Positions 3,117 through 34,373 of a stretch of 51,245 nt of DNA are shown here, piece after piece (positions within the stretch are counted from its first letter, which is position 1; every line of letters begins with the position of its first letter). The stretch is from Candidatus Woesearchaeota archaeon (GTDB taxonomy: Archaea; Nanobdellota; Nanobdellia; Woesearchaeales; ARS49). The notes beneath the pieces are model-generated. The model worked only from the letters and a program-made list of their open reading frames with translations. It was not told the DNA's origin and ran no database searches. The position numbers were made by a program, and so were the translations under genes. The stretch lies in assembly GCA_014729555.1 (NCBI GenBank), contig WJJT01000054.1, forward strand, positions 1-51,245, read 5' to 3'.

Positions 3117-3117
3117 A

Positions 3118-4101
3118 ATGGTATTTGCAAACATAATGGAAATGGGCCAGTCATTTGGCCACAATTACCCTGTCATATTCTACTCTATAGCCTGTGTTCT
3201 CAGCCTGATAATTGTATTGAAAGCATCTGATTTGGCAATCTACGGCATTTCCAATTATGCAAAAAAGCTGGGGATAAGCCATTACTTGATTGGATTTTTA
3301 GTGGTTGCAGTAGGAACCTCTCTTCCAGAATTAGTAGCATCCATAACAGGAGCATTAGCAGGGCAGACAAGCATGATATTCGGCACAGTAGTGGGCTCAA
3401 ATATCAGCGACCTGACATTGGTTTTAGGAATAATGGTAATAGTCGGCAGAACAATAAAAATGGAACACCCAATAGTTGGAAAAACATTTTTCCAGACACT
3501 TGCATTGGCTGCCTTGCCTGTAATTCTTGTCAGTGACGGAGCCTTGACAAGACCAGACGGAGTGATATTATTAGCCGGCTTTGGGGCATACATTGCAAGC
3601 CTCTGGCTCAAAGAAGGAAAACTCGGCAAGATGAAAAAAGACGTCAAGCTAAAGACATTATGGAAAGACGGATTTGTATTTGCAGGATGCATAGTTGCGC
3701 TGTTATTGGGTGCAAGGTGGCTGATTTATTCTGCATCACAGATAGCAGCAATAGCAGGAATACCACCATATGTTGTTGGTTTAACAATCATTGCACTCGG
3801 CACTTCTTTACCAGAAGTAATGGTAGAGGTAAAATCAATACTAAAAGGAATAAGCTCATTAGCATTTGGGGACTTACTAGGCTCAGTAATAGCAAACTCA
3901 ACAATGGTGCTTGGAGTAATAGCACTAATACACCCAATAGAAATCGCATTTAATTCTATAATATTTGCCTGCGCAATAATGATAGCAACAGTGCTGTTAG
4001 GCCTGTATTTCATGACAAAAAAACAGATAACCTGGAAACACGGCATTGTACTGGTTTCAATCTATGTTGTATTCTTTGTGATGCAGTTCTTTTTAATGTA
4101 A
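3118..4101 (+). CDS. Na+/Ca2+ (CaCA family) antiporter
   Basis: Two GTSLPE alpha-repeats, GSN motif, about 10 TM helices. Confidence 0.92.
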   Translation: MVFANIMEMGQSFGHNYPVIFYSIACVLSLIIVLKASDLAIYGISNYAKKLGISHYLIGFLVVAVGTSLPELVASITGALAGQTSMIFGTVVGSNISDLTLVLGIMVIVGRTIKMEHPIVGKTFFQTLALAALPVILVSDGALTRPDGVILLAGFGAYIASLWLKEGKLGKMKKDVKLKTLWKDGFVFAGCIVALLLGARWLIYSASQIAAIAGIPPYVVGLTIIALGTSLPEVMVEVKSILKGISSLAFGDLLGSVIANSTMVLGVIALIHPIEIAFNSIIFACAIMIATVLLGLYFMTKKQITWKHGIVLVSIYVVFFVMQFFLM

Positions 4102-4189
4102 TTACCTTTTAGCGGTGTTTACACACAAACTTTATAAAGGGCGGCTTTCTTTATTTTACATAACACAAAATATGGGGGACAATACAAAA

Positions 4190-5827
4190 ATGGTATTCAA
4201 AAGAATAAAATCAGGATTAATTACACTAGCAGCATTAGCAGCACTACTGGCACCAGGATGCTCAGAAAAAACCAACACAGAATACATTTATCCAGAAAAC
4301 ACGCAGCAAATACCGACAGCTGCGCTTAAGGCAGTATCTGATGACGGAGAGTATGCAGCACTAAGCATGAAAGACAAGACAGACCTGGAAGCCATGCTAT
4401 TCAGTGCAGGCACAGGAACCACAAAAAACATGTCAAATTCCCCGCTTGCAAGTGATTTTGCAAGAACCTTTGCAGGGCACAACCTTGTGACAACAACAAG
4501 AGACGAAAAGAACAATGCGCAAATAAAAATATACAATACAGCAGGAGACACAATCTTTACATCAGACAAATTCAACTGGGTAAATGACGTCATTTCATAT
4601 CCAGACAACACAAAAATTATATTCAACGGAACAGACTATGACCACTACAGCCATGTGCATTCACACACAATAGGAAGCCAGAGTGCAGAAAAACTATTCC
4701 CTGATGCAAAAGCAAGCTATGTAGAGGTAAAATCACAGGATGATTCTGTCATCTTCATGTATGCATTCAGCCCTTCAAACGGAGACACATTATACATGCT
4801 AAAGACAGCAGACGACACAATAACACCAATAGTAAACCTGCCAGCAAACCAGGTCTTTGAAATCTCAAAAAACAACGCAACAGCCATACTTTACGATTGG
4901 AACAACCAAAGAATAAAAACAGTGGATACAGCCACTGCAGACGTACAAGCAGCAGACATACCTGCTGGCAAGCAGTTTCAAAATGTAGACAGGCTCTCTG
5001 AAACCGGGCTTGGAGCAATGCTGCAGTTTGGAGACACTGCAACTGGAAAAACAGAGTTCTGGCACTTTAACACACAAAACAGAACACTAGATTTTGTAAC
5101 AGAGAGAGCCACAGGAACAGCACACAGGTATCCAATGCAAATCTCTCCAGACGGAAAAACAACTGTGTTCAGCAAGCATGACTCTTCAACAGGAGACGGC
5201 GTACTAATTCATAATGCAGACACTTCTGATCTCTATAATCCAATAGGAACAGCAACAACCTGGGCAGACTGCAGAGGATTCAGCTCAGACGGAAAAGCAA
5301 TAATCCAGTATGATGACAGCGCCACAGGCGATAACAAGGCAGTTCTGCATGACACTGAAACAAAAACAAACACAGCCCTGGGAGATGCTGCAAATTACAG
5401 GCTTCACTGGTGCAATGACCCAACACCTGCCAGGAATCACCTGCCAATAAACGCAGCAGACCTGTCAACAGGATGGAATGTAGTGCTGCTTGAAGACTTG
5501 GCAAACAGCGGAAGAAAAGTCATCAGCCAGGCAGGGATAGACCTTGAATACATGGGGGCATCACCAGACAGCAAGTACATACTGCTAAAAGGGAAAAACA
5601 ATTCATCTCAAGAGAACCCAGCAAACCTGTTCGTGTATAATATTGAAGATGAAGAACTGACACAAGCCACACACAATACAGACCCAAGGCTTGACTGGAT
5701 ATACTTATCAATGCACTCAAAAGACGGCAGCAATGCATACTTTGAGGAAAAGTTTGACAACGGAACAAGCCTGGTGAAAGAGCTGGATTATGAAACACTT
5801 GAAGTGAAAGAAGTGGCTTATCAGTAG
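4190..5827 (+). CDS. Lipoprotein, probable beta-propeller (TolB-like repeats)
   Basis: Signal peptide with lipobox LAPGC; repeated SPDG/SxDG-type motifs; beta-rich composition. Confidence 0.7.
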   Translation: MVFKRIKSGLITLAALAALLAPGCSEKTNTEYIYPENTQQIPTAALKAVSDDGEYAALSMKDKTDLEAMLFSAGTGTTKNMSNSPLASDFARTFAGHNLVTTTRDEKNNAQIKIYNTAGDTIFTSDKFNWVNDVISYPDNTKIIFNGTDYDHYSHVHSHTIGSQSAEKLFPDAKASYVEVKSQDDSVIFMYAFSPSNGDTLYMLKTADDTITPIVNLPANQVFEISKNNATAILYDWNNQRIKTVDTATADVQAADIPAGKQFQNVDRLSETGLGAMLQFGDTATGKTEFWHFNTQNRTLDFVTERATGTAHRYPMQISPDGKTTVFSKHDSSTGDGVLIHNADTSDLYNPIGTATTWADCRGFSSDGKAIIQYDDSATGDNKAVLHDTETKTNTALGDAANYRLHWCNDPTPARNHLPINAADLSTGWNVVLLEDLANSGRKVISQAGIDLEYMGASPDSKYILLKGKNNSSQENPANLFVYNIEDEELTQATHNTDPRLDWIYLSMHSKDGSNAYFEEKFDNGTSLVKELDYETLEVKEVAYQ

Positions 5828-8461: not shown

Positions 8462-9588
8462 TTTCTATCATCTGCCTTAGCTTTTAAAACATCATTCAGG
8501 ATATCAACATAATCATCTTCTGAAACAAAATTTCCTCCTAAACCCTGAATATAATTACAAACAACATTTTTACAACCAGACAAGGCCATCTTGACCTCTG
8601 GATAAAGAATACCACCCATGCCAGGACAGATATTCTGGTCAATAACAGCAATATTATCAATCTTTTCAAGAGCCTTTCTTAACTGCTTTTCAGGAAAAGG
8701 CCTGAACAACCTAATCCTTAACAAACCAACCTTTTTTCCTTTTTTCCGCATTTTATCAACAGCAGAACGGGCAATAGTTGAGTTAGCACCAATCATCACA
8801 ATCACAGCCTTTGCATCCTTTGTCTTATACTCATCCAAAAACTCATACTTCCTGCCAGTCACTTTAGCCCAGGCTTTCTGAACATTGTCAACAACATCAA
8901 AAGAATCAAGCATAGCCTTATGCAATTGCTGCCTATACCTCATGTAATCAAGGCCCATTGCAGGAATACCCAGAGTCATAGGCTTCTTGACATCCAGCCT
9001 GACCTCTAATTCAGGATGAGACAGGAACTTGTCAACAAGCTTTTGCTCAGGAACATCAACCTCTGTCCTTGTGTAAGAATGCACAAAACCATCCATGTTA
9101 ACAATAACAGGAAGCAAAATCTTAGGATTCTCAGAAATCCTGTAAGCCATAATCACACTATCCAAGACCTCCTGATTAGTCTCGCAAATCAGCATAATCC
9201 AGCCAGCATCACGCATGGCCAAGGTATCATTGTGATCAGGCCACAAACCGATAGGAGCAGACAAGCACCTTGAGACTGTTGTAAGCACCATAGGAGTCCT
9301 GCAGCCAGAAATAATAGGAAGCATCTCATGCATCAACAACAAGCCCTGAGACGAAGTTGCTGAAAAAGTCCTTGCACCAGTCATAGAAGCACCCAAGCAA
9401 GCGCTTGCAGCACTATGCTCTGACTCCAACACAACAAACTCTCCAGGAAATTTTCCATCAGCCTTCCAGGCAGCAATAGTCTCAATAATCTCAGTAGTGG
9501 GAGTGATAGGAAAAACAGGAACACACTGCACCTTAGCCCTACGAGCACCCCATGCAGCACAAGCATTACCATCAAGTATGTCAATCAT
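8449..9588 (-). CDS. porA: 2-oxoacid:ferredoxin oxidoreductase alpha subunit
   Basis: FPITP, ESEH, ATSSQGL and RLFRPFP motifs. Confidence 0.92.
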   Translation of the reverse strand: MIDILDGNACAAWGARRAKVQCVPVFPITPTTEIIETIAAWKADGKFPGEFVVLESEHSAASACLGASMTGARTFSATSSQGLLLMHEMLPIISGCRTPMVLTTVSRCLSAPIGLWPDHNDTLAMRDAGWIMLICETNQEVLDSVIMAYRISENPKILLPVIVNMDGFVHSYTRTEVDVPEQKLVDKFLSHPELEVRLDVKKPMTLGIPAMGLDYMRYRQQLHKAMLDSFDVVDNVQKAWAKVTGRKYEFLDEYKTKDAKAVIVMIGANSTIARSAVDKMRKKGKKVGLLRIRLFRPFPEKQLRKALEKIDNIAVIDQNICPGMGGILYPEVKMALSGCKNVVCNYIQGLGGNFVSEDDYVDILNDVLKAKADDRKWQM

Positions 9589-9896: not shown

Positions 9897-10444
9897 ACCA
9901 CCTTGTCATAACAGATCTCAGCAGCCTGCAAATTCTTCTTTACAGCCTCTGGATGCTTTTTCCCTAATTCAATCTCAACAGCCTTTGCCAAATGATCCAT
10001 GTCAATCTCCTTGAAAATCTTGACAAAAGCACCCAACAAAGCAATATTAGGAATATTCCTGCCAATAACCTGCACAGCAACACCAGTAGCATCAACCTTG
10101 CAGTACTCAACATCCAGCTTCAGGTCCCTTGCAGTGTTAATCAGCTCTTTAGTCGTCTTTTTCCTGCCCTTCAGGTGACAGGAAAGCTCTAAAGTATCAT
10201 CCAGAACAATAATAAAATCAGGATTCCAGACATAACCCCTTGTGCCGATAGGCTTTTTATCAAGCCTCACAAAACTAGTGACAGGAGCCCCCCTTCTCTC
10301 TGCGCCATACAAGGCAAAATCCTGAGTAAAATAGCCTGCAAGATACGCAGCCCTGGCTAAAATCTGTGCAGCCTTCTTTACACCCTGGCCGCCTCTTCCA
10401 TGCAGTCTTATTGAAATCATCTTTTCCTGTATTTTTTTAGCCAT
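9890..10444 (-). CDS. porG: 2-oxoacid:ferredoxin oxidoreductase gamma subunit
   Basis: HGRGGQG and YGAERRGAP motifs. Confidence 0.92.
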   Translation of the reverse strand: MAKKIQEKMISIRLHGRGGQGVKKAAQILARAAYLAGYFTQDFALYGAERRGAPVTSFVRLDKKPIGTRGYVWNPDFIIVLDDTLELSCHLKGRKKTTKELINTARDLKLDVEYCKVDATGVAVQVIGRNIPNIALLGAFVKIFKEIDMDHLAKAVEIELGKKHPEAVKKNLQAAEICYDKVVC

Positions 10445-11580
10445 GGCTCCATCCTCTTCAGGGCCTTTTGAATCAATTTATAATCAGTAGCAAAAGAAAA
10501 CCTGGCATGGCCTTCCCCTACAGTACCAAAATCAATGCCAGGAACAGCAGCAACCTTTGCCTCCTTAATCATCTTATTGCAAAACCTCTTGCTATTATCA
10601 TCAAACTGTCTTATATTACCAAAAGCATAAAACGCACCCTTAGGCATTGGACAGCTGATGCCCATCTCATTCAAGGCAGGAACAATCAAATTCCTTCTCC
10701 TGTCATACTCCTTAACCATCTGTTTTGCATGCCTGTCACCCATCTTCAGGGCTTTCAGGCCAATCAACTGAGAAATGCTCGGAGCACAAATAGTGGACAG
10801 TATATGAGTCTTCTTTATAGCCTCTGCCAAATCCTCATTACAAACAACATAACCAAGCCTGTGCCCGCACATTGCATAACTCTTTGAAAAAGTCTGAAAA
10901 GTAACTGCATAATCCTCCATGCCATTAAAAGATGCAATAGAATAATGCTTTGCACCATCATAAAGAATATGCTCATACGCCTCATCAGAAAAAATATACA
11001 AGTCATGCTCAACAGCAATATCTGCAAGCTCTTCCAATATCTTTTTACTGAGAACATTTCCAGTAGGGTTTGCAGGAGAATTAATCAGCAAAACCTTTGT
11101 TTTTTTCCTGTTAACCGCCTTTTTAACAGCATCAGGATTAACAGCATAATCATCCTCTTCCTTAAGCTCAACAAAACGCGGATTTGCATTAAACAACTCA
11201 AAAGTCGGGAGAAAGCCCATAAAGCCAGGATCAGGAAGAATAATCTGCTCAGAAACATCCAGGCAGCAGGCAGTTGCAAGCATCAAGGCCTCTTGCGAAC
11301 CGCAGGTCACAACAACATTATCAGGAGAAACCTTAATCTTATTCCCTTTTTTCAGCTTTTTACAAATCTCCTCCCTTAACTCCTTGAACCCGCCAGGAGG
11401 GGCATAATGATTCACCTTGTGCGCAAGTCTTTTTGTGTGAGCAACAAGACTTGGATGCAGTTCAAAATCCGGCTCACCAGGACCTAAAGAGATTATCTCG
11501 GGATGCTCAACAGCAATCTCCAACAGCTTGTCAATCTCCAGGTCAGGAAGCTCCTGCTCCCTCTCAGACAACTCAACCAT
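10417..11580 (-). CDS. PLP-dependent class I aminotransferase
   Basis: GEPDF, NSPANPTG, SDEAY and TFSKSYAMCGHRLG (PLP lysine). Confidence 0.93.
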   Translation of the reverse strand: MVELSEREQELPDLEIDKLLEIAVEHPEIISLGPGEPDFELHPSLVAHTKRLAHKVNHYAPPGGFKELREEICKKLKKGNKIKVSPDNVVVTCGSQEALMLATACCLDVSEQIILPDPGFMGFLPTFELFNANPRFVELKEEDDYAVNPDAVKKAVNRKKTKVLLINSPANPTGNVLSKKILEELADIAVEHDLYIFSDEAYEHILYDGAKHYSIASFNGMEDYAVTFQTFSKSYAMCGHRLGYVVCNEDLAEAIKKTHILSTICAPSISQLIGLKALKMGDRHAKQMVKEYDRRRNLIVPALNEMGISCPMPKGAFYAFGNIRQFDDNSKRFCNKMIKEAKVAAVPGIDFGTVGEGHARFSFATDYKLIQKALKRMEPWLKKYRKR

Positions 11581-15962: not shown

Positions 15963-17264
15963 ATGATAGACAAAAAAGAACACGCAGACCTGGAAGGCAT
16001 GCGGTTTCACAAGAACGCTTGCATGCTGACAGGCACAAAACTATATGCACCAAGCCACGCAGCAATGAGCGGGCTATGCGCAAACTGCATAATGTGCGGA
16101 CTGTGCGAAGTAGGGGCAAAAGCAAAATCAGGAAGAACACTTTTTCCACAGCCATTCGGCACAACACAATTCGGTGCAGAAAAAAGAATACCAAACATGG
16201 AAGACCTCCAGATAATGCCAGAATTATACGGAGAGGGATTATTCTTCACAAAAACAAGTTCTGAGGGAGAATTAGGAGGATTCAAGTGCACTGTCCCTCT
16301 AGTAATCGCAGGAATGGGCTCAACAAAAGTAGCATCAGACAAGAATGATGAACTCACAATCGGAGCTGCAAAAGCAGGAATAGCAAGAGTATTAGGAGAA
16401 AATTACCTCATAACATTTGGAGAGGAAAAACTAAAGCACACAATAGACATCTACAAGAAAAACCAGAAAAAAGGCTATGGAGCAATCGTGATACAGGTAA
16501 ATGCAAACGAGCACAAGCTGGGACTTGCAAAAATGGCAGCAGACCTCGGAGCAGATGCAATAGAAATGAAACTCGGACAGGGAGCAAAACAAGGACTAGG
16601 CGGAGAGATACAGTTTGAAGGAGAAGAAAAAGCAGAAAAATTCAAGAAAGCAGGATACCTAGTCATAGACAAAGGCAATGGCAAATATGAAAGACACGCA
16701 TTCCCAGGAACACTTACTTCAGAATCATTAAGAGAGACACTAAAAGAATATGCAAGCCATGGCAAACCGCTCTGGGTAAAGACAGGAATGGGCATAGGAA
16801 TAATAAAACTAATAGAAGAGCTGGACAAAATCAAGAAAGAAGAAGACCTTCCAATTGAAATACTGACAGTAGACGGATTCGGCGGAGGGACAGGAATGAG
16901 CCCATGGCTGGTCATGAATGAAATGAACATGCCGTCAGGAGCTTTGTTTTCTGTATTGAAAAAGAGACCAAGCTTTGACATAATATTAGCAGGCGGGTAT
17001 AGCACTGGCTTTGATGTGGCAAAAGCAATGATGCTCGGAGCAGACGGCGTTGCAATGGGAAGGCCGTTCTTGATAGCAGCAAGGCAGGAAAACGGAATAG
17101 AAAACTTTTGTGCTGCAATAAGCGAAGAACTAAAAATGACAGCAGTAACACAGAAAGTTGACACAATCTCAAAAATAGTAGGCAAAAGAAAATCACTGTT
17201 TGCCTTATCAAAAGAAGCAAAAAACATGTTTGGCATAACAACAGAGCCAAAGGATGTTTTATAA
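15963..17264 (+). CDS. FMN-binding glutamate synthase family protein (stand-alone FMN domain)
   Basis: IEMKLGQGAKQGLGG, VDGFGGGTG and DVAKAMMLGAD motifs; N-terminal CxxCxxCxxC. Confidence 0.85.
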   Translation: MIDKKEHADLEGMRFHKNACMLTGTKLYAPSHAAMSGLCANCIMCGLCEVGAKAKSGRTLFPQPFGTTQFGAEKRIPNMEDLQIMPELYGEGLFFTKTSSEGELGGFKCTVPLVIAGMGSTKVASDKNDELTIGAAKAGIARVLGENYLITFGEEKLKHTIDIYKKNQKKGYGAIVIQVNANEHKLGLAKMAADLGADAIEMKLGQGAKQGLGGEIQFEGEEKAEKFKKAGYLVIDKGNGKYERHAFPGTLTSESLRETLKEYASHGKPLWVKTGMGIGIIKLIEELDKIKKEEDLPIEILTVDGFGGGTGMSPWLVMNEMNMPSGALFSVLKKRPSFDIILAGGYSTGFDVAKAMMLGADGVAMGRPFLIAARQENGIENFCAAISEELKMTAVTQKVDTISKIVGKRKSLFALSKEAKNMFGITTEPKDVL

Positions 17265-18638: not shown

Positions 18639-19379
18639 ATGGGTGACAAGAAGCCAGTACTAGGCATTGTATCATTCACATGCGACCAAGGATGCCAGTT
18701 CACAATACTATTCATTGAAAAACTAATGGACATTCTAAAGAAATTTGACGTGCAATACTTTCATTTGCTGAAAGAAAAGAACAGAAAAGCAAAATTCGAC
18801 CTCTGCTTTGTAGAAGGAGCGATAACAACAAAAAAAGAAGCAGAAAAACTCAAAGAAATCAGAAAAAAAAGCAAAGTACTTGTGGCGCTGGGAGCATGCG
18901 CATGCCACGGCGGAGTTCCTGCAATGCGAAACTTCATAGAAAATAAAGAACTTGAGAAATACGTCTACAACCAAAAGCTTCCAAAAGACGCACTGTCAGC
19001 AGCAGGAATAGGAGAATACGTGAAAGTAGACTATTACATGTATGGCTGCCCAATAATAAAAGAAGAATTCATGAATTTTTTAAATCAATTCCTGAAAGGA
19101 AAAATAATGAAAGAATTTGAGGGGCCTGTGTGCGCAGAGTGCCCAAGACAAGGCAAGCAAGACTGCTTTTTAAGACAGAAAAAAATCTGCCTGGGGCCGC
19201 TGACACACGGCGGATGCTCAGCAGTCTGCACAAAAGCAAACTTTGAGTGCATGGGATGCAGAGGACCAAGACCAAAAGCAGACTACAAGGCAGAAATAGA
19301 GCTTTTCAAGTCCTGGGGATTATCAGAAAAAGAGGTAATGCAAAGACTAAACATGTTCAAGAACATAGAAAACACATAA
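18639..19379 (+). CDS. [NiFe] hydrogenase small (delta) subunit, group 3b-like
   Basis: TCDQGC, VEGAI, LGACACHGG, YGCP, CxxC, CLGPLT.GGC...C, CMGCRG. Confidence 0.9.
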   Translation: MGDKKPVLGIVSFTCDQGCQFTILFIEKLMDILKKFDVQYFHLLKEKNRKAKFDLCFVEGAITTKKEAEKLKEIRKKSKVLVALGACACHGGVPAMRNFIENKELEKYVYNQKLPKDALSAAGIGEYVKVDYYMYGCPIIKEEFMNFLNQFLKGKIMKEFEGPVCAECPRQGKQDCFLRQKKICLGPLTHGGCSAVCTKANFECMGCRGPRPKADYKAEIELFKSWGLSEKEVMQRLNMFKNIENT

Positions 19380-19428
19380 AATCATAAGATTTTAAGTGTA
19401 CAAAAAATTCAGGAGGAATTTTTCAGGT

Positions 19429-20706
19429 ATGCCAAAAAAAATAAACCTAAACCAAATAACAAAAATAGAAGGACACGCTAAACTCCACATAAAGATAGAC
19501 AAAGGAGAGATAAAAAAAGTAAACCTGAAAATCTATGAAGGCTCAAGATACTTTGAAGGCATACTAAAAGACAAGAAATTTAACGACGTCAACCACATTG
19601 CCTCAAGAATATGCGGGATATGCAGCCCTGTGCACGGCCTTACATCTGTCAAAGCAACTGAAAAAGCCCTGGGAGTGCAGGTATCTGAACAAACAGAACT
19701 ATTAAGAGAGATACTGAACATCGGGGGAACAATACAGAGCCATGTCCTGCATTTATATTTCTTAACACTGCCAGACTACACAGGCTTTCCAAACGCAGTG
19801 CAGATGGCGCAAAAACACCCAGAAAAAGTAAAATCAGCGCTAAAGATAAAACAAATAGGAAATGACCTTGTCAGAGTGATTGGAGGCAGGGACATCCACC
19901 CCTTTACCTTAACACCAGGCGGGTTTGTCAGAATACCAAAACCAGAACAATTCAAGGCATTATTAAAAAGCGCAAAAGCCTGCCTGCCAGAAACAGAAAA
20001 AGCAGCACATTTATTCTGCGGACTGGACTACCCAGACTTTAAGCGCGAGACAAAACATTATGCACTAAAAGCCAAAAAAGGGTGCTTTTTCTGCCCAGAA
20101 GACAAGATAACCTGCACAGGAGGAAAACAGTGCATAGCAGTCACAGACTATGAAGATTATTTCAAGGAGTTTTTCAAGCAGGGCTCAACAGCAGAATTTG
20201 CAAAAGCAAATGAATCAAGCTACATGGTAGGAGCATGGTCAAGAATACTTAACAATTATGACCAATTAAGCAAAGAAGGGAAAAAACTAACAAGCTGCAT
20301 ACTGCCAAGAAAATTCTCACCATTCATGAATAATCCTGCCCAAGCAGTAGAGATGTGGGAAGGGCTCAAAAGAGTTGTTGATGTTCTTGAAAGCACTGAC
20401 TTCAAGCCAGAAAAACCAGTTGAAATCAAGACAAAAGCAGGAACAGGCATAGGAGCAAATGAGGCACCAAGAGGAATTGTATTCCATAAATACAAGTATG
20501 ACAACAAAGGATACACAAAACTGGTCAACATAACAACACCAACAACACAAAACCTGCAAAACCTTGAAGACGACATCAAGCACTTCCTTCCAACACTATT
20601 AGACAAGCCCAAGGAAGAAATACAATTAGAAATAGAGAAACTGATAAGAGCATATGATCCCTGCATTAGCTGTGCAGCACACTTTCTGGAAATTGTGTGG
20701 GAATAG
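19429..20706 (+). CDS. [NiFe] hydrogenase large (alpha) subunit, group 3b-like
   Basis: TKIEGH, L1 motif RICGIC, EAPRG, L2 motif DPCISCAAH, then a short cleavable tail FLEIVWE. Confidence 0.95.
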   Translation: MPKKINLNQITKIEGHAKLHIKIDKGEIKKVNLKIYEGSRYFEGILKDKKFNDVNHIASRICGICSPVHGLTSVKATEKALGVQVSEQTELLREILNIGGTIQSHVLHLYFLTLPDYTGFPNAVQMAQKHPEKVKSALKIKQIGNDLVRVIGGRDIHPFTLTPGGFVRIPKPEQFKALLKSAKACLPETEKAAHLFCGLDYPDFKRETKHYALKAKKGCFFCPEDKITCTGGKQCIAVTDYEDYFKEFFKQGSTAEFAKANESSYMVGAWSRILNNYDQLSKEGKKLTSCILPRKFSPFMNNPAQAVEMWEGLKRVVDVLESTDFKPEKPVEIKTKAGTGIGANEAPRGIVFHKYKYDNKGYTKLVNITTPTTQNLQNLEDDIKHFLPTLLDKPKEEIQLEIEKLIRAYDPCISCAAHFLEIVWE

Positions 20707-20926: not shown

Positions 20927-21430
20927 TTACTTGATTTCCTTAAACATCTCCTTAGGAGCACTGCAAACAGGACATATATCTGGAATCTCATCGCCCACAA
21001 TCGTGTAACCGCAGCACTCACAGACATGATAATTAGTTGGTTCTAAATCTTTTTTCTCTTTAATCGCCTTTAGGGCCTTTTCATACTCTCTCTCGTGAAT
21101 CTTTTCAGCAGCAATAGCCCACCTGAAAGACCTCACTGCATCATTGTCATTAGCCTCTTCAGCCTCCTTGATAAATCTCGGATACAGCTTCTCTGCCTCA
21201 TACTTCTCACCCTCAAAAGCATCAACAATGTTCTCCTCAGTGGTCTTTATTCCGTTCAAGACATTCAGGTGGTTCCTTGCATGAGCAGTCTCAGAAGCAG
21301 CAGCAGCCCTGAACAGCCTGGCAATCTGCTTCCTGCCCTCTATCTCAGCCTTGTCTGCAAAAAACAAATATTTCCTGTTAGCCTGGCTCTCTCCTGCAAA
21401 AGCCTCCTGAAGATTTTCTTTAGTTGTCAT
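20927..21430 (-). CDS. rbr: Rubrerythrin
   Basis: AFAGESQANRKY, ExxH motifs and a C-terminal rubredoxin CxxC...CPVC. Confidence 0.95.
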   Translation of the reverse strand: MTTKENLQEAFAGESQANRKYLFFADKAEIEGRKQIARLFRAAAASETAHARNHLNVLNGIKTTEENIVDAFEGEKYEAEKLYPRFIKEAEEANDNDAVRSFRWAIAAEKIHEREYEKALKAIKEKKDLEPTNYHVCECCGYTIVGDEIPDICPVCSAPKEMFKEIK

Positions 21431-21446
21431 GATAAATCACCCCAAA

Positions 21447-21812
21447 CTAACTTTTTCTTAACTCATTTATAAGCTTTATTATTCCCTGCTTTATAGTTTC
21501 CTTGTTGCCATGCATTGGAATGCCGATGATTGTTACGTTATTTATCTTGCCGATTGATTTTCTTAGTTTCAACTCAGTACCCAAGTCAAAATCATGCATT
21601 GTAACAGGATGAAAATCCTTGACCTTATCAAGAGGAATCAATCGAACATCTTTCAAGCCTTTTACAACATCAAGAACAACAACATCGCCATTGATGCTGT
21701 CCAGAGAATCACACTTGATGAACTCAACACCTGCTATCTTTAATTCATCAGCCAATTCTTTTGCAAGAGAATCATCTTCAATATATTCATTGCCAAAACA
21801 GAGGACTTTCAT
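21447..21812 (-). CDS. Hydrogenase maturation protease-like protein (short HycI/HybD type)
   Basis: FGNEYIEDD, VVLD and TMHDFDLG motifs, in hydrogenase context. Confidence 0.7.
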   Translation of the reverse strand: MKVLCFGNEYIEDDSLAKELADELKIAGVEFIKCDSLDSINGDVVVLDVVKGLKDVRLIPLDKVKDFHPVTMHDFDLGTELKLRKSIGKINNVTIIGIPMHGNKETIKQGIIKLINELRKS

Positions 21813-21847
21813 GAACGTGCAAAATCAAAAAGTATTTATATTCTTTA

Positions 21848-22753
21848 TTGTTCTGCAAGCACATGATAAAGAAGGGGCATGCATTTGTTCTACTGACAGC
21901 ATTAATTAGCGGAGTGTCCATCTTTGTTAATAAATTTGGGGTAGAGGGAATAAACCCATACCTATTCACATGGTCAAAGAACATATTAGTGGTTTTACTC
22001 CTGTTCTCATTACTGATATTATTCAAAGACCTGAAAACATTCAAGACACTGAATAATAAACAATGGCTAAAGCTTGTAGCAATAGGATTTTTCGGGGGCT
22101 CAATACCATTTTTACTGTTCTTTAAAGGATTATCAATGAGCCCAAGCTCAACAGCAGCACTACTTCATAAATCAATGTTCATCTTTGTGAGTGCCTTGGC
22201 AGTATTATTCCTAAAAGAGAAGATGAACAAAGGATTCATTGTGGCTGCAATACTGCTATTTGCAGGAAATCTGTTCTTGCTAAAATTAACAAACTTAAGC
22301 TTTGGAATACCTGAATTACTGATATTAATCGCAGTATTATTCTGGTCAACAGAGACAATCATCTCAAAAAACACACTAAAAGAACTGCCATCCAATGTTG
22401 TGGCATTCGGCAGAATGTTCTTTGGAGCAATATTTATTCTAATATTCCTGCTTGCAACAGGAAACATGGGACAATTCCTTGAATTAACTCTTCCACAACT
22501 AGGATGGATTGCCTTAACATCTGCATTCTTATTGTTGTATGTCACAACATGGTATGCAGGACTAAAATACACACCAGCATCAGTGGCAGCAAGCATACTA
22601 GTATTAGGAAGTGCAATCACAACAATACTGTCAATTGCATATGCTGGAAGCTTCAGCATTGTGGAAATCTTAGGAATTGGTTTAATCAGTGCAGGAGTAA
22701 TAACTGCAATCTGCACATCTAGAGTGAAAATATTACTTCCTTCAAAGAACTAA
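21848..22753 (+). CDS. DMT/EamA family transporter
   Basis: 10 TM helices with two EamA-like repeats (FLKEK). Confidence 0.85.
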   Translation: MFCKHMIKKGHAFVLLTALISGVSIFVNKFGVEGINPYLFTWSKNILVVLLLFSLLILFKDLKTFKTLNNKQWLKLVAIGFFGGSIPFLLFFKGLSMSPSSTAALLHKSMFIFVSALAVLFLKEKMNKGFIVAAILLFAGNLFLLKLTNLSFGIPELLILIAVLFWSTETIISKNTLKELPSNVVAFGRMFFGAIFILIFLLATGNMGQFLELTLPQLGWIALTSAFLLLYVTTWYAGLKYTPASVAASILVLGSAITTILSIAYAGSFSIVEILGIGLISAGVITAICTSRVKILLPSKN

Positions 22754-23193
22754 ACTTTTTCTACTGCATAACCATAGTGAATCATTGCAGAATCTCCTGC
22801 TTTAGCAGTTGGATATAATGCATGCACATATCTTATATCACCATCGCCCAAATCTGCCCTAAAGACATCACCAATCTGTTTTACGAGTTTGCCTTTTTTA
22901 ACAACACACAACCTCTTAATCATAGGAGGCAGGTCCTTGCTAATAGCCTCTTCATGCCTGTTCCAGAAGTATTCTCTAATTGTTTCTACAGTCCATGGAT
23001 CTGGATTGATTTTCATGATTCTCTGAATTGCCACAGGAAAAATCCGCTCAAGATAAGCCCTATCCAGCGGAGTGTCTGTCTCAGCTGCCTGCTTTAATTT
23101 TTCCCACTCTTTTTCTGTGATAGTCTTTCTCACATCAACCAAGACCCTTGCACAGGGAAAAGAATATCTCAAGAAATAAACCTCAGGCAGCAT
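22750..23193 (-). CDS. DUF6390-like hydrogenase-associated protein with a HypC-like C-terminus
   Basis: FLRYSFPC N-terminus, C-terminal GDSAMIHYGYAVEKV; overlaps hypC. Confidence 0.65.
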   Translation of the reverse strand: MLPEVYFLRYSFPCARVLVDVRKTITEKEWEKLKQAAETDTPLDRAYLERIFPVAIQRIMKINPDPWTVETIREYFWNRHEEAISKDLPPMIKRLCVVKKGKLVKQIGDVFRADLGDGDIRYVHALYPTAKAGDSAMIHYGYAVEKV

Positions 23194-23389
23194 TTTCCCA
23201 CTCCTTCAAGCTTGCCAGAGCCTCTTCTTCTGATAATTTCTGGACAATAATCTGCGCAGAGACAAAAACATAGTCACCGATACTGAATTCTCCTTCAACA
23301 ATCTTTGCAGTCCTTTGCTCACCAGGATATTCTATAGTTGCCTCATCATCCTCAATCTTAATTATTTTGCCAGGAATAGCCATGCACAT
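23183..23389 (-). CDS. hypC: Hydrogenase assembly chaperone HypC
   Basis: MCMAIPGKI N-terminus, GDYV, EEA. Confidence 0.9.
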   Translation of the reverse strand: MCMAIPGKIIKIEDDEATIEYPGEQRTAKIVEGEFSIGDYVFVSAQIIVQKLSEEEALASLKEWENAA

Positions 23390-23712
23390 TATTCAACCAC
23401 CACATCTTTTAGAACGATTTCCTCTCCTTCAATGATCTTAAAAGGAACTTTCTTGCATTTAGGGCACTCAAACAAAGTAAGATCATGCGCTTTCTCAAGA
23501 ATTTTCGGCTCTCCCCTGTAGCCGCACCTGCACTCAACAAGGCCAGGAATTCTTATTACCTCGACTTCCCAATCCACTCTTTTTTCCAGGGCATCTTTTA
23601 GCTCATCCGCAGGCAGGTGCGCAAGATCACCTACCTCTATAGTGACTTTTTTCACATTTCCCTGCTCTTTTGCCTTGTCAATCAGTTCCTTGGCAATAAA
23701 CCCCTCGTGCAT
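23389..23712 (-). CDS. hypA: Hydrogenase nickel chaperone HypA
   Basis: MHE N-terminus, CxC and CPKC zinc ligands, GEE. Confidence 0.9.
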   Translation of the reverse strand: MHEGFIAKELIDKAKEQGNVKKVTIEVGDLAHLPADELKDALEKRVDWEVEVIRIPGLVECRCGYRGEPKILEKAHDLTLFECPKCKKVPFKIIEGEEIVLKDVVVE

Positions 23713-25975: not shown

Positions 25976-26731
25976 ATGTGGGTACACAACCTAAATCCTG
26001 TAATATTCTCACTAGGGCCTCTTGAAGTAAGATGGTACGGCCTGATGTATGTTCTAAGCTTTATTGTAATTTACTTATATGCACGGGCAGCTGTAAAGCA
26101 AAACAAGCTAAAAATTTCCATGAAAGAACTGGATGACTTAATGATAATGCTAGTGGCAGCCTTGATAATAGGGGCAAGGCTTGGAGAGGTATTGTTCTAC
26201 AATCCTTCATATTACATTGCCAATCCTTCTGAAATCATAGCAATATGGCACGGCGGGCTGAGCTTTCACGGCGGATTAATAGGAGTACTTATTATCGGAT
26301 ATGTATTTGCAAGAAAGAAAAAAATAAGTTTTCTTCAATTATGTGATGTGTTTGTAGTTCCATTAGCACTAGCACAAGTATTTGGCAGAATCGGAAATTT
26401 CATCAATGGAGAATTGTATGGAAGAGTGACTACATTACCCTGGGGAATAAAGTTTCCCTCTGCAGAGGGATTCAGGCACCCATCACAGCTCTATGAAGCA
26501 GCGTATGATTTATTGATATTCGGATTCTTGTTCTTCCAACGCAACCTCAAAAGAAAACCAGGATACTTACTGGGCTGGTTCTTGGTATTGTATTCTGTAT
26601 TCAGATTCTTCACAGAATATGTCAGAGAGCCAGACTTTATGGTAGGGCCATTGACAATAGGACAAGTATTGAATATTCCTATGTTCATAGCAGGAGCTTA
26701 TTTGCTTTATAGGATTAGAAAGAAAAGCTAA
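25976..26731 (+). CDS. lgt: Prolipoprotein diacylglyceryl transferase
   Basis: VRWYGLMY, IGARL, GGLSFHGG, GRIGNFINGELYGR, RHPSQLYE, RFFTEYVR. Confidence 0.95.
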   Translation: MWVHNLNPVIFSLGPLEVRWYGLMYVLSFIVIYLYARAAVKQNKLKISMKELDDLMIMLVAALIIGARLGEVLFYNPSYYIANPSEIIAIWHGGLSFHGGLIGVLIIGYVFARKKKISFLQLCDVFVVPLALAQVFGRIGNFINGELYGRVTTLPWGIKFPSAEGFRHPSQLYEAAYDLLIFGFLFFQRNLKRKPGYLLGWFLVLYSVFRFFTEYVREPDFMVGPLTIGQVLNIPMFIAGAYLLYRIRKKS

Positions 26732-31618: not shown

Positions 31619-32029
31619 ATGGACTGCGTATTTTGTAAAATTGTAAAAGGAGATATTCCTTGCCAGAAATTGTATGAGAATGACAAAATACTTGCGTTTC
31701 TTGACATAAGCCCAATACACAAAGGGCACACACTAATTATTCCTAAAGAGCACCATGAAAACATACTAGACATGCCAGATGAAACACTCGCAGAACTGGC
31801 AAAAACAACCAAAAAAATCTCAAAAGCAGTCAAAGAAGCAACAAATGCAGACGGGTTCAATGTAACACAGAACAACGGAGCAGCAGCAGGACAGGCAGTA
31901 TTCCACTTCCACACACACATAATCCCCAGATTTGATGGAGACGGGCTAAAAACCTGGCCACACAAAGACATTCCAGAAGAGGAAATGAAGCGAATACAGG
32001 AAGATATAGCAAGTTTTTTAAAAGATTAA
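31619..32029 (+). CDS. HIT family hydrolase
   Basis: CVFC, GHTL and HFHTHIIPR triad. Confidence 0.93.
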   Translation: MDCVFCKIVKGDIPCQKLYENDKILAFLDISPIHKGHTLIIPKEHHENILDMPDETLAELAKTTKKISKAVKEATNADGFNVTQNNGAAAGQAVFHFHTHIIPRFDGDGLKTWPHKDIPEEEMKRIQEDIASFLKD

Positions 32030-32048
32030 TATATTTTCTCCAATTAGT

Positions 32049-32200
32049 GGCGGCGTAGCTTAGCCTGGTATAGTACTGCGCTCATGAATGTTTTTCTTGA
32101 GCTATGAGGTTTTTAACCAATGATTACAAGAAAGCAGTGCAACGCAGGGGTCCCGAGAGGTATATACAAATATCCGGGAATTCAAATCTCGGCGCCGCCA
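32049..32200 (+). tRNA. tRNA-Met(CAT), elongator-type, with two introns (about 55 nt in the anticodon loop; 23 nt at 53/54)
   Basis: GGCGGCG/CGCCGCC-A; anticodon stem CTGCG/CGCAG enclosing 62 nt; T-stem BHB CCCG-AGA...CGGG-AAT gives intron 32158-32180. The first intron's boundaries are uncertain because its BHB is relaxed. Confidence 0.8.
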
Positions 32201-32943
32201 TTTTTAATATCATACAGGTTTATTTTTCCATCTAAGATTAAATTCTTTTGTTCGTAATTTAAATTAGCTGGGCAGAATCCAAATTTCTTCCAAATCCTAT
32301 ATTTCAGAAGGTGTTTTTCATTTCTTAAACCAATTATTTTCAAATATCTTTCAACATTTTTGACTCCGTTAAGCGATAAAACCCATGTTTTGTTAGGGCG
32401 AGCTTTGCTTTCTTTTTCTTCGTTAAAAGATGCATTCAATTGAAATTTTTCCAATAGTTTCGCAACTTGTTGAATAAGTGGTTTAGATTTAGATGTCAAA
32501 CGAAGTTCTGGATAAGAATGATATTTTCCTTTAAAGGGTTTTCTAAATTTTAAGTAACCATCTGTATCGAACAATCCTCTGATACACGCTATTGTGAATT
32601 TTTTATCAGATAAAACCCATGCAGGAATTTGCATATCTGTCTTTGGACCTAAAGGCAATCCCATTCTTTTCTTGAATAAAATCAAAGACTTGCGATGATA
32701 TTTCATTTCAACAGTATTTTTCCTAATGTGTATATGAGAGGGAAAAATATTATACAGTTTTTTGATTAATTCTTTTACAAATTCGCTATATGCCACATCA
32801 TTTATCGCATCTGCAGAGTATGAAAAAGTATTATTGTTATATTTAGGATAAATATTCATGAAGCCATCTCCAATATGAATTCCTGTTTCTTCTGCCAGTT
32901 CTTCACTATATTCTGTCGGTAATTTTAATTTGTATTTTACCAT
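32182..32943 (-). CDS. Free-standing two-motif LAGLIDADG homing endonuclease
   Basis: LAEETGIHIGDG and IRGLFDTDG motifs; AT-rich; its last codons overlap the tRNA-Met 3' end. Confidence 0.88.
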   Translation of the reverse strand: MVKYKLKLPTEYSEELAEETGIHIGDGFMNIYPKYNNNTFSYSADAINDVAYSEFVKELIKKLYNIFPSHIHIRKNTVEMKYHRKSLILFKKRMGLPLGPKTDMQIPAWVLSDKKFTIACIRGLFDTDGYLKFRKPFKGKYHSYPELRLTSKSKPLIQQVAKLLEKFQLNASFNEEKESKARPNKTWVLSLNGVKNVERYLKIIGLRNEKHLLKYRIWKKFGFCPANLNYEQKNLILDGKINLYDIKNGGAEI

Positions 32944-33077
32944 GTCAAATAGTTTAGAATTACGTCTTTAAATAGTCTACGAGAACCTGTCCAGTGACCT
33001 GTGATTATTTGGGAAAAAATCGAAAAATTTTCGGAAAATTAAGTAACTTTTAAAAACACCCATATGTTTTCTTACTT

Positions 33078-33129
33078 CTATGCCGTGGCACAACCGTGGC
33101 AAACTTTTAAAAAAAAAGTTTGATCAAAA
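33078..33129 (+). repeat. tRNA-5'-like fragment fused to a CAAACTTTT-A5-AAAAGTTTG hairpin
   Basis: CTATGCCGTGGCACAACCGTGG resembles 33183-33207; the hairpin recurs at 49732-49751. Confidence 0.55.
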
Positions 33130-33186
33130 CTCTTCAAGCAGGATCTGCGATCCCGCGATATGCGGATTGTGCTACGCAATAGCTAT

Positions 33187-33292
33187 GCCGGCGTGGTACA
33201 ACCTGGTACTGCGCGAGACTGGAAAATTGGAACCCGTTCCAAATTCTTGGAAAAAGGGGTTTCCAAGAAATCACGTTTCCTTCGGGATACCC
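33187..33292 (+). pseudogene. Truncated, intron-containing tRNA-Ser(GGA)-like copy
   Basis: GCCGGCG-TG-GTA..TGC-G-CGAGA-CTGGAA, a structured insert, then TCACG and the V-arm TTTCCTTCGGGATA identical to the intact tRNA-Ser; ends in poly-A with no T-arm. Confidence 0.75.
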
Positions 33293-33311
33293 AAAAAAAA
33301 TCGCCTCCAAT

Positions 33312-33395
33312 GCCGCAGTCGCATAACCTGGTATTGCGCAGGACTGGAAATCCTGTTTCCTTCGGGATATCCCGGTTCAAATCCGGGCTGCGGCG
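33312..33395 (+). tRNA. tRNA-Ser(GGA), intronless
   Basis: GCCGCAG/CTGCGGC-G; CAGGA-CTGGAAA-TCCTG; V-arm; CCCGG-TTCAAAT-CCGGG. Confidence 0.95.
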
Positions 33396-33454
33396 TTTAT
33401 ATCCATAAAATTTTTATATTTTAATCAATTAAACACTAATAAGGAGGTTTTAAA

Positions 33455-33931
33455 ATGTACGAAATTAATTCACCATTACGAAGAGGGGGATCTATCAGTA
33501 AAGCAGATCCTGAATTCATTGCTCGCGCAACTCATTTAATGGGACAGTCTGCTCAACTAGCAGTTGACGCATTAGGAGATCTTGCTGCATTGGATTCTTT
33601 AGTTCAAGGAAGTTTTATGAAACAATTAAATAACGCTGCAGGCGCATTGACAGGAAAAACAGATATTACAGACTCCAATAAAAAAATAGAAGCAGCATTT
33701 GCTAAAAGTGAAATTACTGCCAATGCATTTCTTGGAAGAGCATTTGGACAGATGAGAGGTATTTGCGATTATATTGAAGATTGTAATTATTTATTAGGAA
33801 ACAGGTGTAAATCAGTCATTAGAGAAGCAATACACTCTTCTCCCAAGACCATCAGCGGAGTTGCTGGAACATTAGGAGTTAGTCAAGGCTATTTAGAGAT
33901 TGCTCTCTTGAGATGTGCATATGGTACCTGA
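33455..33931 (+). CDS. Hypothetical helical protein
   Basis: AAGGAGG RBS; atypical T-ending codons; GQMRG..DYIED motif. Confidence 0.7.
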   Translation: MYEINSPLRRGGSISKADPEFIARATHLMGQSAQLAVDALGDLAALDSLVQGSFMKQLNNAAGALTGKTDITDSNKKIEAAFAKSEITANAFLGRAFGQMRGICDYIEDCNYLLGNRCKSVIREAIHSSPKTISGVAGTLGVSQGYLEIALLRCAYGT

Positions 33932-34373
33932 AAATTTTGATTTTATTTTAAAACAAGCAATGGATATTTTATATGCCAAGCTTGATGATGCATGGAGTTG
34001 TGCCCAAGCATGGGAACAAAGCCGAAAAAAGACTTCAGGAGTTAGAGGAATATTTAATTTGGTCACAAATCCTGATGATTATTTTGAGAATAAACCCCGA
34101 GTCAAACAGTTAGAAACTCAAAAAGAATATCTTACTGGTCAAATGGCCGGCGCATCAAATGCTATTATAGATTTTATTGAAGACAATCTGCCCCCTGCTC
34201 TTGCTGAACAAGTTATTACTGCAGCAAGAGGCAGTGTTGAATCATATCTTAGACAAAATAAGAGCAAGATAAAAAGATTTAGTGATGATTCAACCACTGT
34301 AATAAATGAGTTAGGAAGTTCTATTGAAACTGCAATGCATGATGCTGCTCAAAGATATTATAGTAATCAATAA
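33921..34373 (+). CDS. Hypothetical helical protein, probable paralog of the upstream gene
   Basis: GQMAG....DFIED motif; overlaps the upstream stop. Confidence 0.7.
   Translation: MVPENFDFILKQAMDILYAKLDDAWSCAQAWEQSRKKTSGVRGIFNLVTNPDDYFENKPRVKQLETQKEYLTGQMAGASNAIIDFIEDNLPPALAEQVITAARGSVESYLRQNKSKIKRFSDDSTTVINELGSSIETAMHDAAQRYYSNQ

Follow-up and report, generated by a model that had tools for sequence, protein, structure and literature searches.

According to the review PMC12134894, all six Hyp proteins are needed for the NiFe(CN)2CO cofactor of [NiFe] hydrogenases; the same review proposes Cys2 and possibly His51 of HypC, together with Cys41 of HypD, as ligands of the iron and states that their exchange abolishes activity. 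The window analysed here, a contig of 51,245 nucleotides from a Candidatus Woesearchaeota archaeon (WJJT01000054.1), encodes a [NiFe] hydrogenase and a small set of maturation genes in which hypC is followed by a gene for a 147-residue, two-domain protein (22750..23193, − strand), referred to here as X147. As far as genome scans can tell, HypD, HypE and HypF are truly missing from the source genome. With three assembly enzymes thought to be indispensable absent, this archaeon probably builds its [NiFe] metal centre by an undescribed route. X147 most likely belongs to the DUF6390 superfamily and serves in [NiFe]-hydrogenase maturation, and we give an about even chance to the proposal that in this archaeon it would replace HypD as scaffold partner of HypC.

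Among described proteins, the nearest are HypC, HybG and HupF (PF01455, TIGR00074; Thermococcus kodakarensis structures 2z1c and 3vyr-3vyu and Escherichia coli structure 2ot2). The C-terminal 52 residues of X147 share their OB (oligonucleotide/oligosaccharide-binding) fold, with a Cys and a His at the homologous places, and X147 also lies within a hydrogenase maturation cluster. In X147, however, the Cys is at position 96, after a helical domain of 95 residues and without a Met-Cys start, the part of HypC past residue 52 is missing and a separate true HypC gene adjoins. With the uncharacterized family DUF6390 (PF19927) X147 has its neighbours in common (HypC, EamA, peptidase and hydrogenase) as well as its exclusion with HypD in the phylum sample described below. 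DUF6390 proteins are ∼240 residues long and have a central PHH-bearing insert, whereas X147 is ∼90 residues shorter and lacks the insert; X147 is oriented with hypA-hypC, whereas DUF6390 shares the orientation of EamA and the peptidase. X147 resembles HypD, the [4Fe-4S] scaffold of the HypCD complex, in occupying the gene slot after hypC and in occurring where HypD is missing, and the likeness would extend to holding the iron unit jointly with HypC. X147 has neither a cluster-binding Cys motif nor a Rossmann part, no sequence or fold likeness between the two was found, and its 147 residues compare with ∼340-370 for the HypD genes of relatives. A second HypC-type protein beside HypC, as here, is also described in PMC12134894 for O2-tolerant hydrogenases, which have HoxL/HupF together with HoxV/HupK. 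Those proteins belong to aerobes, work after HypCDEF and retain the Cys at the N-terminus, whereas the Cys of X147 is internal, and no large-subunit-like scaffold is encoded at the window cluster.

X147 itself passed no Pfam or NCBIfam threshold, and its sole hit was to HypC (PF01455; residues 112-147, E 0.019, 15.5 bits against a gathering score of 28.5). It has 73 close homologues of ∼147 residues, from Woesearchaeota or Nanoarchaeota wherever they are named, and a profile search returned 309 clusters at 50% identity, nearly all of them full-length. A profile built from 33 relatives aligns residues 95-146 with residues 1-52 of T. kodakarensis HypC (E 0.005), placing Leu95-Cys96 on Met1-Cys2 of HypC and His139 on its conserved His. 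The AlphaFold model (predicted local distance difference test, pLDDT, 84.6) has helices at residues 3-95 and a five-stranded domain at 98-146. In Foldseek the latter domain matches HypC chains with template-modelling (TM) scores of 0.77-0.81 and root-mean-square deviations (r.m.s.d.) of 1.6-1.7 Å, the best superposition being that on 3vys_A (TM 0.81, r.m.s.d. 1.6 Å, 53 columns, 38% identity). VIA gave Z scores of 5.7 for 2ot2 and 5.2 for 2z1c and comparable scores for other OB folds, and the HypC identity of the domain therefore comes from the sequence profile. Among 56 diverse relatives of X147, 49 match PF01455 at E ≤ 0.1 and 17 pass its cut-off; eight have sub-threshold DUF6390 hits (best 22.6 bits). 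Across 129 diverse sequences, with a mean column identity of 19%, neither His80 nor His139 varies, and conservation of Cys14 and of Cys96 is at least 90%. The protein divides into a helical domain of residues 1-95 with the conserved Cys14 and His80 (22909..23193, − strand) and a HypC-type OB domain of residues 96-147 with the internal Cys96 and His139, lacking the C-terminal part of HypC (22753..22908, − strand). The initial annotation had seen a HypC-like C-terminus (GDSAMIHYGYAVEKV) in this protein; it is there and reaches further than was noticed, covering residues 95-146 with a HypC-type OB fold. The other strings that it quoted (GDYVFVSAQ, YSFPC and RLC) were likewise all found in the sequence.

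The description of X147 as DUF6390-like, also from that annotation, stands at the level of profiles and does not extend to a direct family match. PF19927 does not hit X147 even at E 10 (gathering score 25 bits) and has no hit in the source genome. Aligned with hhalign, the X147 family and nine true DUF6390 proteins are related at 98.0% probability (E 2e-13, 121 columns), with Cys96 of X147 paired with Cys152 of DUF6390 and His139 with His209, and superposition of the X147 model from the ESM Atlas on DUF6390 clusters gives TM scores of 0.76-0.79 over 138-140 residues. Taken together, the profile homology, the model match and the HypC alignment identify X147 as a compact DUF6390 relative composed of a helical domain and an internalized HypC-type OB domain. 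Folded alone (AlphaFold2, pLDDT 87.6), the helical domain gave no convincing fold match in the PDB (best VIA Z 4.3, Foldseek E 4.6), which is no proof of a new fold. Natural in-frame HypC-X147 fusions of 215-233 residues were found three times among 150 listed relatives (P0111, P0135 and P0143) and support a physical link between the two proteins; as hypC and the X147 gene overlap, an assembly indel could also produce such a fusion.

The initial annotation reported no hypB, hypD, hypE or hypF in the window, which we can extend to the whole source genome (1.04 Mb, 58 contigs, 89.4% complete). HypD, HypE, HydE and HydG were not found there, and HypF is represented only by acylphosphatase-, YrdC- and Kae1-sized pieces far under the cut-off. 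The single HypB-like hit in the genome, a HypB candidate in the window, was rejected as FtsY; the ATPase-type (Mrp/MinD) archaeal HypB was outside this search. The maturation genes found in the genome are only those for X147, a His-less HypC, HypA, an EamA permease and a short endopeptidase. In the 29 other X147-bearing genomes the large subunit is always present (29/29), and neither HypD (0/29) nor HypE above its cut-off (0/29) was found.

The same pattern is seen in an even sample of the phylum, comprising 401 genomes including the source genome, the other 400 being at least 90% complete. The large subunit (PF00374) is matched in 92 genomes, in 87 of them over the cut-off, and these 92 divide as follows: HypD in 16; an X147-type protein in 40 (36 by a narrow profile at E ≤ 1e-10, and G184, G339, G425 and G340 by a broad profile); true DUF6390 without HypD in 23; a HypC::HydE fusion with HydG in five (HydG scanned in four); and none of these modules in eight (G280, G342 and six with weak large-subunit hits only). 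HypE exceeds its cut-off in 16/16 HypD genomes versus 0/64 genomes without HypD (80 genomes tested), and HypF is found at E ≤ 1e-40 in 16/16 (12 over the cut-off) versus 0/64. Only 16 of the 92 genomes with a large subunit have HypD, HypE and HypF. The 63 genomes with X147-type or DUF6390 proteins and no HypD include 57 that were tested for HypE and HypF, all of which lack both. A complete hypDEF set elsewhere in the genome, a possibility considered in the initial annotation, was found neither in the source genome nor in the 64 hydrogenase-bearing relatives, each at least 90% complete. Full-length X147 and HypD never occur in one genome of the sample; apparent overlaps in G305, G370 and G380 are ordinary HypC proteins of 68-75 residues. 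HypD and X147/DUF6390 are near-completely complementary in the sample. The co-occurrence of DUF6390 with missing HypDEF that the initial annotation proposed to test is near-exclusive within the phylum sample but not strict, both being present in one of the 16 HypD genomes (G276) and on two bacterial plasmids. The genomes flagged as unpublished were counted (G004, G005, G014, G027, G272, G425 and G362); no statement hangs on these alone, apart from the membership of G362 among the five HydE/HydG genomes. A literature search found no paper naming DUF6390, and nothing on [NiFe] maturation without HypDEF in DPANN archaea or candidate phyla radiation (CPR) bacteria, with supplementary tables outside its scope and some searches weak. 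PMC8421398, on Woesearchaeota genomics, reports group 3b hydrogenases, and the word 'maturation' is absent from its main text.

Large subunits that are close relatives can have different maturation modules. The genus g32 alone has all three types, with HypD in G068, an X147-type protein in G184 and DUF6390 in G207, a mixture that points to frequent swapping of whole hydrogenase and maturation clusters. A quick maximum-likelihood tree with support values only from the Shimodaira-Hasegawa-like approximate likelihood-ratio test was made for 63 large subunits, 26 from X-type, 17 from HypD, 15 from DUF6390 and five from HydG-type genomes. The module labels, given by genome and not by adjacency, with some genomes having two hydrogenases, change 20 times on this tree, versus a minimum of 3 and a mean of 31 for shuffled labels. 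Cross-module sister pairs, such as that of L082 from a DUF6390 genome and L070 from a HypD genome, have support of 100, and HypD-genome rows are nested in a starred clade of DUF6390-genome rows. The interleaving of the modules and these sister pairs therefore indicate one enzyme lineage that is served by either module.

The HypC next to X147 (68 residues; 23183..23389, − strand, overlapping the X147 start by 11 bases) passes its family scores (PF01455, 59.3 bits; TIGR00074, 50.8 bits against a cut-off of 48) and has Cys2, one functional residue, the conserved His, being replaced by Ser. The residue at the His position is Ser, Thr, Gln or Asn in 36/36 distinct HypC genes adjoining X147 or DUF6390 (27 + 9 genes, L039 and L047 being one locus), Gln in all five HypC::HydE fusions and Ser in all three natural HypC-X147 fusions. 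The His is kept in three HypC genes of HypD-bearing relatives and on the Mycobacterium and Sulfobacillus plasmids, which carry both HypD and DUF6390. Because it is also lost in the five HypC::HydE genomes, which have neither HypD nor DUF6390, the loss tracks that of HypD and not the presence of DUF6390. The initial annotation had suggested that the HypC His appears on the neighbouring protein. This idea did not hold: the His is lost from HypC wherever HypD is absent, so it was not transferred to the neighbour. In DUF6390 and X147 the OB-domain His is an ancestral feature, and DUF6390 has it also beside HypC proteins that retain theirs, as on the Mycobacterium and Sulfobacillus plasmids.

A third arrangement occurs in five genomes with a [NiFe] hydrogenase that lack HypD, HypE, HypF, X147 and DUF6390. 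Here hypA is followed by a His-less HypC::HydE fusion of 426-449 residues (TIGR03956, ∼250-290 bits against a cut-off of 254.6) and, directly 3' of it, by an open reading frame (ORF) of 458-478 residues that is a clear HydG in the four genomes tested (TIGR03955, 538-569 bits against 312), that of G362 (L056) having been left out of the HydG scan. The loci lie at 2828-5510 (+) of L051, 3786-6450 (−) of L052, 356-3040 (−) of L053, 65-2727 (−) of L059 and 552-3261 (+) of L056, and the genes adjoin the peptidase and the [NiFe] subunits. An [FeFe] hydrogenase domain was found in none of the five genomes, nor was HydF over its cut-off, and HydE had no match in the 16 HypD, 23 DUF6390 and 34 X-type genomes tested. 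With HydE and HydG beside [NiFe] genes and neither an [FeFe] domain nor HydF, radical S-adenosylmethionine maturases of the [FeFe] system seem to have been recruited to the [NiFe] enzyme, which suggests that Fe-CO/CN units made by HydG feed this enzyme in the five genomes. The module strengthens the view that HypDEF is replaceable in this phylum. The radical route does not explain the source genome and was rejected for it, since HydE and HydG were not found there.

For this archaeon we favour the proposal that X147 takes the place of HypD as partner of HypC, at the even chance given above. Cys96 and His139 of X147, probably joined by Cys14 and His80 from the helical domain, would bind the iron unit destined for the cofactor; X147 would pass this unit to HypC, which would deliver it to the large subunit; nickel would then be inserted by HypA and the seven-residue tail removed by the peptidase. 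The net effect would be that the scaffold role of HypD is taken over by X147, with binding of the metal and contact with HypC presumed in each step. If the enzymes are active, CN and CO can reach the nickel-iron site by routes not yet described, which would bear on the evolution of hydrogenases, on the dependence of symbionts and on simpler ways of producing [NiFe] hydrogenases in heterologous hosts. The cluster is compact, with seven genes in ∼5 kb.

Several observations weigh against X147 as a stand-in for HypD. Its Cys96 lies within the chain, whereas mature HypC begins with its Cys. HypD is absent from the fold matches of the whole model and of the N-terminal domain, although a missing match leaves a likeness possible, and X147 has no [4Fe-4S] or redox motif of the HypD kind. 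No genes for making CN or CO lie in the cluster and HydE and HydG were not found in the genome; none of the readings offered here accounts for the origin of CN and CO in this organism. Four X-type loci (L034-L037), among them one from the same genus as the window (L035), have no EamA within their 3.4-kb stretches. G276 has DUF6390 alongside HypD, the tree labels rest on genomes and not on adjacency, and the related genomes are not independent, so that we give counts and no statistical test. Finally, when plasmids were searched by tblastn with a DUF6390 protein as query, two records matched, from Mycobacterium intracellulare and Sulfobacillus acidophilus, and in both of them DUF6390 immediately follows hypD or hypE within a complete hypF-hypC-hypD-hypE operon near hydrogenase genes. 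DUF6390 is not a general HypD stand-in. The most economical description is that DUF6390/X147 is a HypC-derived accessory handling the iron unit, optional where HypCDEF is present and retained as a core with HypC and EamA where it is not.

These plasmid operons lead to a reading that we regard as unlikely but deserving serious weight, namely that X147/DUF6390 resembles HupF/HoxL in being an additional carrier or holdase and does not replace HypD. It would keep either the large subunit in its apo form or a preformed Fe(CN)2CO unit competent for transfer, and in cells without HypDEF a host or a neighbour would supply the iron unit or its ligands, possibly via EamA. The presence of DUF6390 together with full HypCDEF in both operons and in G276 is what would be expected of such a protein, and extra HypC-type carriers of Fe(CN)2CO are known in HoxL and HupF, with HoxV/HupK (PMC12134894). 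A HupF-like gene near the Sulfobacillus structural genes has Glu at the His position and is thus His-less like the window HypC. An outside source would also fit the tight linkage to EamA and the small genome of 1.04 Mb, DPANN archaea being widely taken as host-dependent in the literature. We know of no transporter for an Fe(CN)2CO-type unit, however, and EamA is missing both from the four X-type loci named above and from the two bacterial DUF6390 operons. An add-on role would, moreover, not predict that HypD and X147/DUF6390 complement each other almost completely in the sample.

Two plasmid genes of another kind were seen in these operons. L054 (Mycobacterium; 10064-10774) encodes a 236-residue protein annotated as 'HypC family' and L055 (Sulfobacillus; 9188-9439) an 83-residue 'hypothetical' protein; in each, a CVTCSD motif precedes a HypC-like VLVH stretch and a Met-Cys start is lacking. 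They represent another N-terminally extended HypC-like kind within hyp operons.

Import is given a larger part in a version of the scaffold idea that we consider rather doubtful. Here the pair of HypC and X147/DUF6390 would be the iron scaffold, EamA would import a preformed organometallic iron unit or a ligand precursor from neighbouring cells, and HypCDEF would be one of three interchangeable routes. The imported unit might resemble, for example, the HydG product Fe(CO)2(CN)-cysteine. These archaea and some CPR bacteria would then mature their [NiFe] hydrogenases without HypD, HypE and HypF, and sister lineages would do so by HydG and HypC::HydE. 

The favoured reading, of X147 as a maturation factor in place of HypD, is supported by the synteny of 29 loci of other genomes with relatives 28-87% identical to X147, two of which are titled as CPR bacteria (Gracilibacteria and Peribacteria). 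EamA is present in 27 of the 29, hypC in 26, the large subunit in 24, the peptidase in 23 and hypA in 22. The cluster, which the initial annotation called minimal, is thus a conserved maturation set whose neighbours recur across these loci, with hypDEF found neither here nor in the 64 hydrogenase-bearing relatives named above. Counted over X-type loci, EamA lies near X147 in 27/31, and it adjoins DUF6390 in 9/9 distinct DUF6390 loci, where peptidase, EamA and DUF6390 overlap on one strand and hypA-hypC is convergent. Clustering of the ORFs within 7 kb in 31 loci gave no further conserved gene beyond the hydrogenase β and γ subunits. The window permease (EamA/DMT, drug/metabolite transporter type; 301 residues; 21848..22753, + strand; PF00892, E 7e-38) shares four bases at its 3' end with the X147 gene. 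The locus of the sister species G425 (L035) reads hypA-hypC-X-peptidase-rubrerythrin, with no EamA between X and the peptidase, and its X protein is much more divergent and was caught by the broad profile only.

A role in handling nickel is quite improbable. X147/DUF6390 would in that case be a metallochaperone or sensor that substitutes for HypB as the partner of HypA, and the substrate of EamA would be nickel or a metal chelator. The lack of a GTPase-type HypB in the source genome, where only the weak FtsY hit was obtained, is in keeping with this, as are the two conserved Cys and two conserved His residues and the nearness of the X147 gene to hypA and a permease. The conserved Cys/His pair of the OB domain is, however, homologous to the iron-binding pair of HypC, and the Sulfobacillus operon has HypA and HypB besides DUF6390. 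A nickel role would also leave the missing HypDEF unexplained, and the ATPase-type archaeal HypB lay outside the search. The window HypA (107 residues; 23389..23712, − strand; PF01155, E 7e-12) has an MHE start and a CxC...CxxC zinc motif.

It is very improbable that the hydrogenase-like genes are relics, or encode an enzyme with another cofactor that needs no Fe(CN)2CO, with X147 a leftover or put to other use. The failure to find any CN/CO maturation enzyme in the source genome agrees with this, but the enzyme appears intact. The window large subunit (436 residues; 19396..20706, + strand; PF00374, E 4e-32) has RICGIC, DPCISCAAH and a seven-residue C-terminal tail; we place it as group 3b-like from the motifs RxCGxC and DPCxxCxxH and from its best NCBIfam match to sulfhydrogenase α (NF040828/NF040832, E ∼1e-82), which is below the equivalog cut-offs. 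In the loci, 29/29 large subunits of at least 400 residues keep RxCGxC and DPCxxCxx[H/R], and with them the four cofactor cysteines and a cleavable tail, most tails being of 7-19 residues; the one among the 29 that comes from a HypD genome has the same type of tail. HypA, HypC and the peptidase are conserved alongside, and the residues of X147 invariant across 129 diverse sequences likewise speak against a relic. The putative maturation endopeptidase itself is short (121 residues; 21447..21812, − strand) and falls below family cut-offs (TIGR00072, E 9e-5, 22.5 bits against 47.45; PF01750, E 0.05); Gly7, Asn8, Asp14, Asp48, His73 and Asp74 are invariant in 15 orthologues, Asp14, Asp48 and His73 being candidates for the Asp/Asp/His metal site of such peptidases, and its profile has the Hyd-2 peptidase 5ttx as its best, weak match in the PDB (E 0.33). 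When the peptidase and HypA were each searched against the PDB as single sequences, no useful match was obtained.

That hypD, hypE and hypF lie in the unassembled 11% of the genome (completeness 89.4%, 58 contigs) is scarcely credible and was rejected, as HypD is found in 0/29 of the other X147-bearing genomes and HypE or HypF in 0/64 of the HypD-less hydrogenase genomes of at least 90% completeness, versus 16/16 of the HypD-bearing ones.

The five genes from the protease-like gene to hypA (protease-like, EamA, the 147-residue protein, HypC and HypA) were confirmed at the coordinates that the initial annotation gave. At lower coordinates the small (δ-type) hydrogenase subunit (246 residues; 18639..19379, + strand) matches PF01058 (E 3e-24) and, under its cut-off, the sulfhydrogenase δ family NF040831 (E 6e-49). 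The window encodes the α and δ subunits only; the β (Fer4_22) and γ (NAD-binding) subunits, found in 12/31 related loci, are not adjacent. Upstream of these subunits (15963-17264, + strand) lies a glutamate-synthase-like flavin mononucleotide (FMN) protein with a Cys-rich start, also found in L007, which may be a redox partner of the hydrogenase. Between the large subunit and the peptidase is a rubrerythrin (167 residues; 20927..21430, − strand; PF02915, E 4e-23), a neighbour kept in close relatives only (L005, L008 and L035).

Elsewhere the window encodes archaeal markers, for example prefoldin and diphthamide synthase. A bacterial-type prolipoprotein diacylglyceryl transferase (Lgt; 25976-26731, + strand; PF01790, E 1e-78) is present in this apparently archaeal genome, and an ORF resembling a LAGLIDADG endonuclease (32182-32943, − strand) lies within the stretch of lowest G+C content in the window (0.354, 32001-34000).

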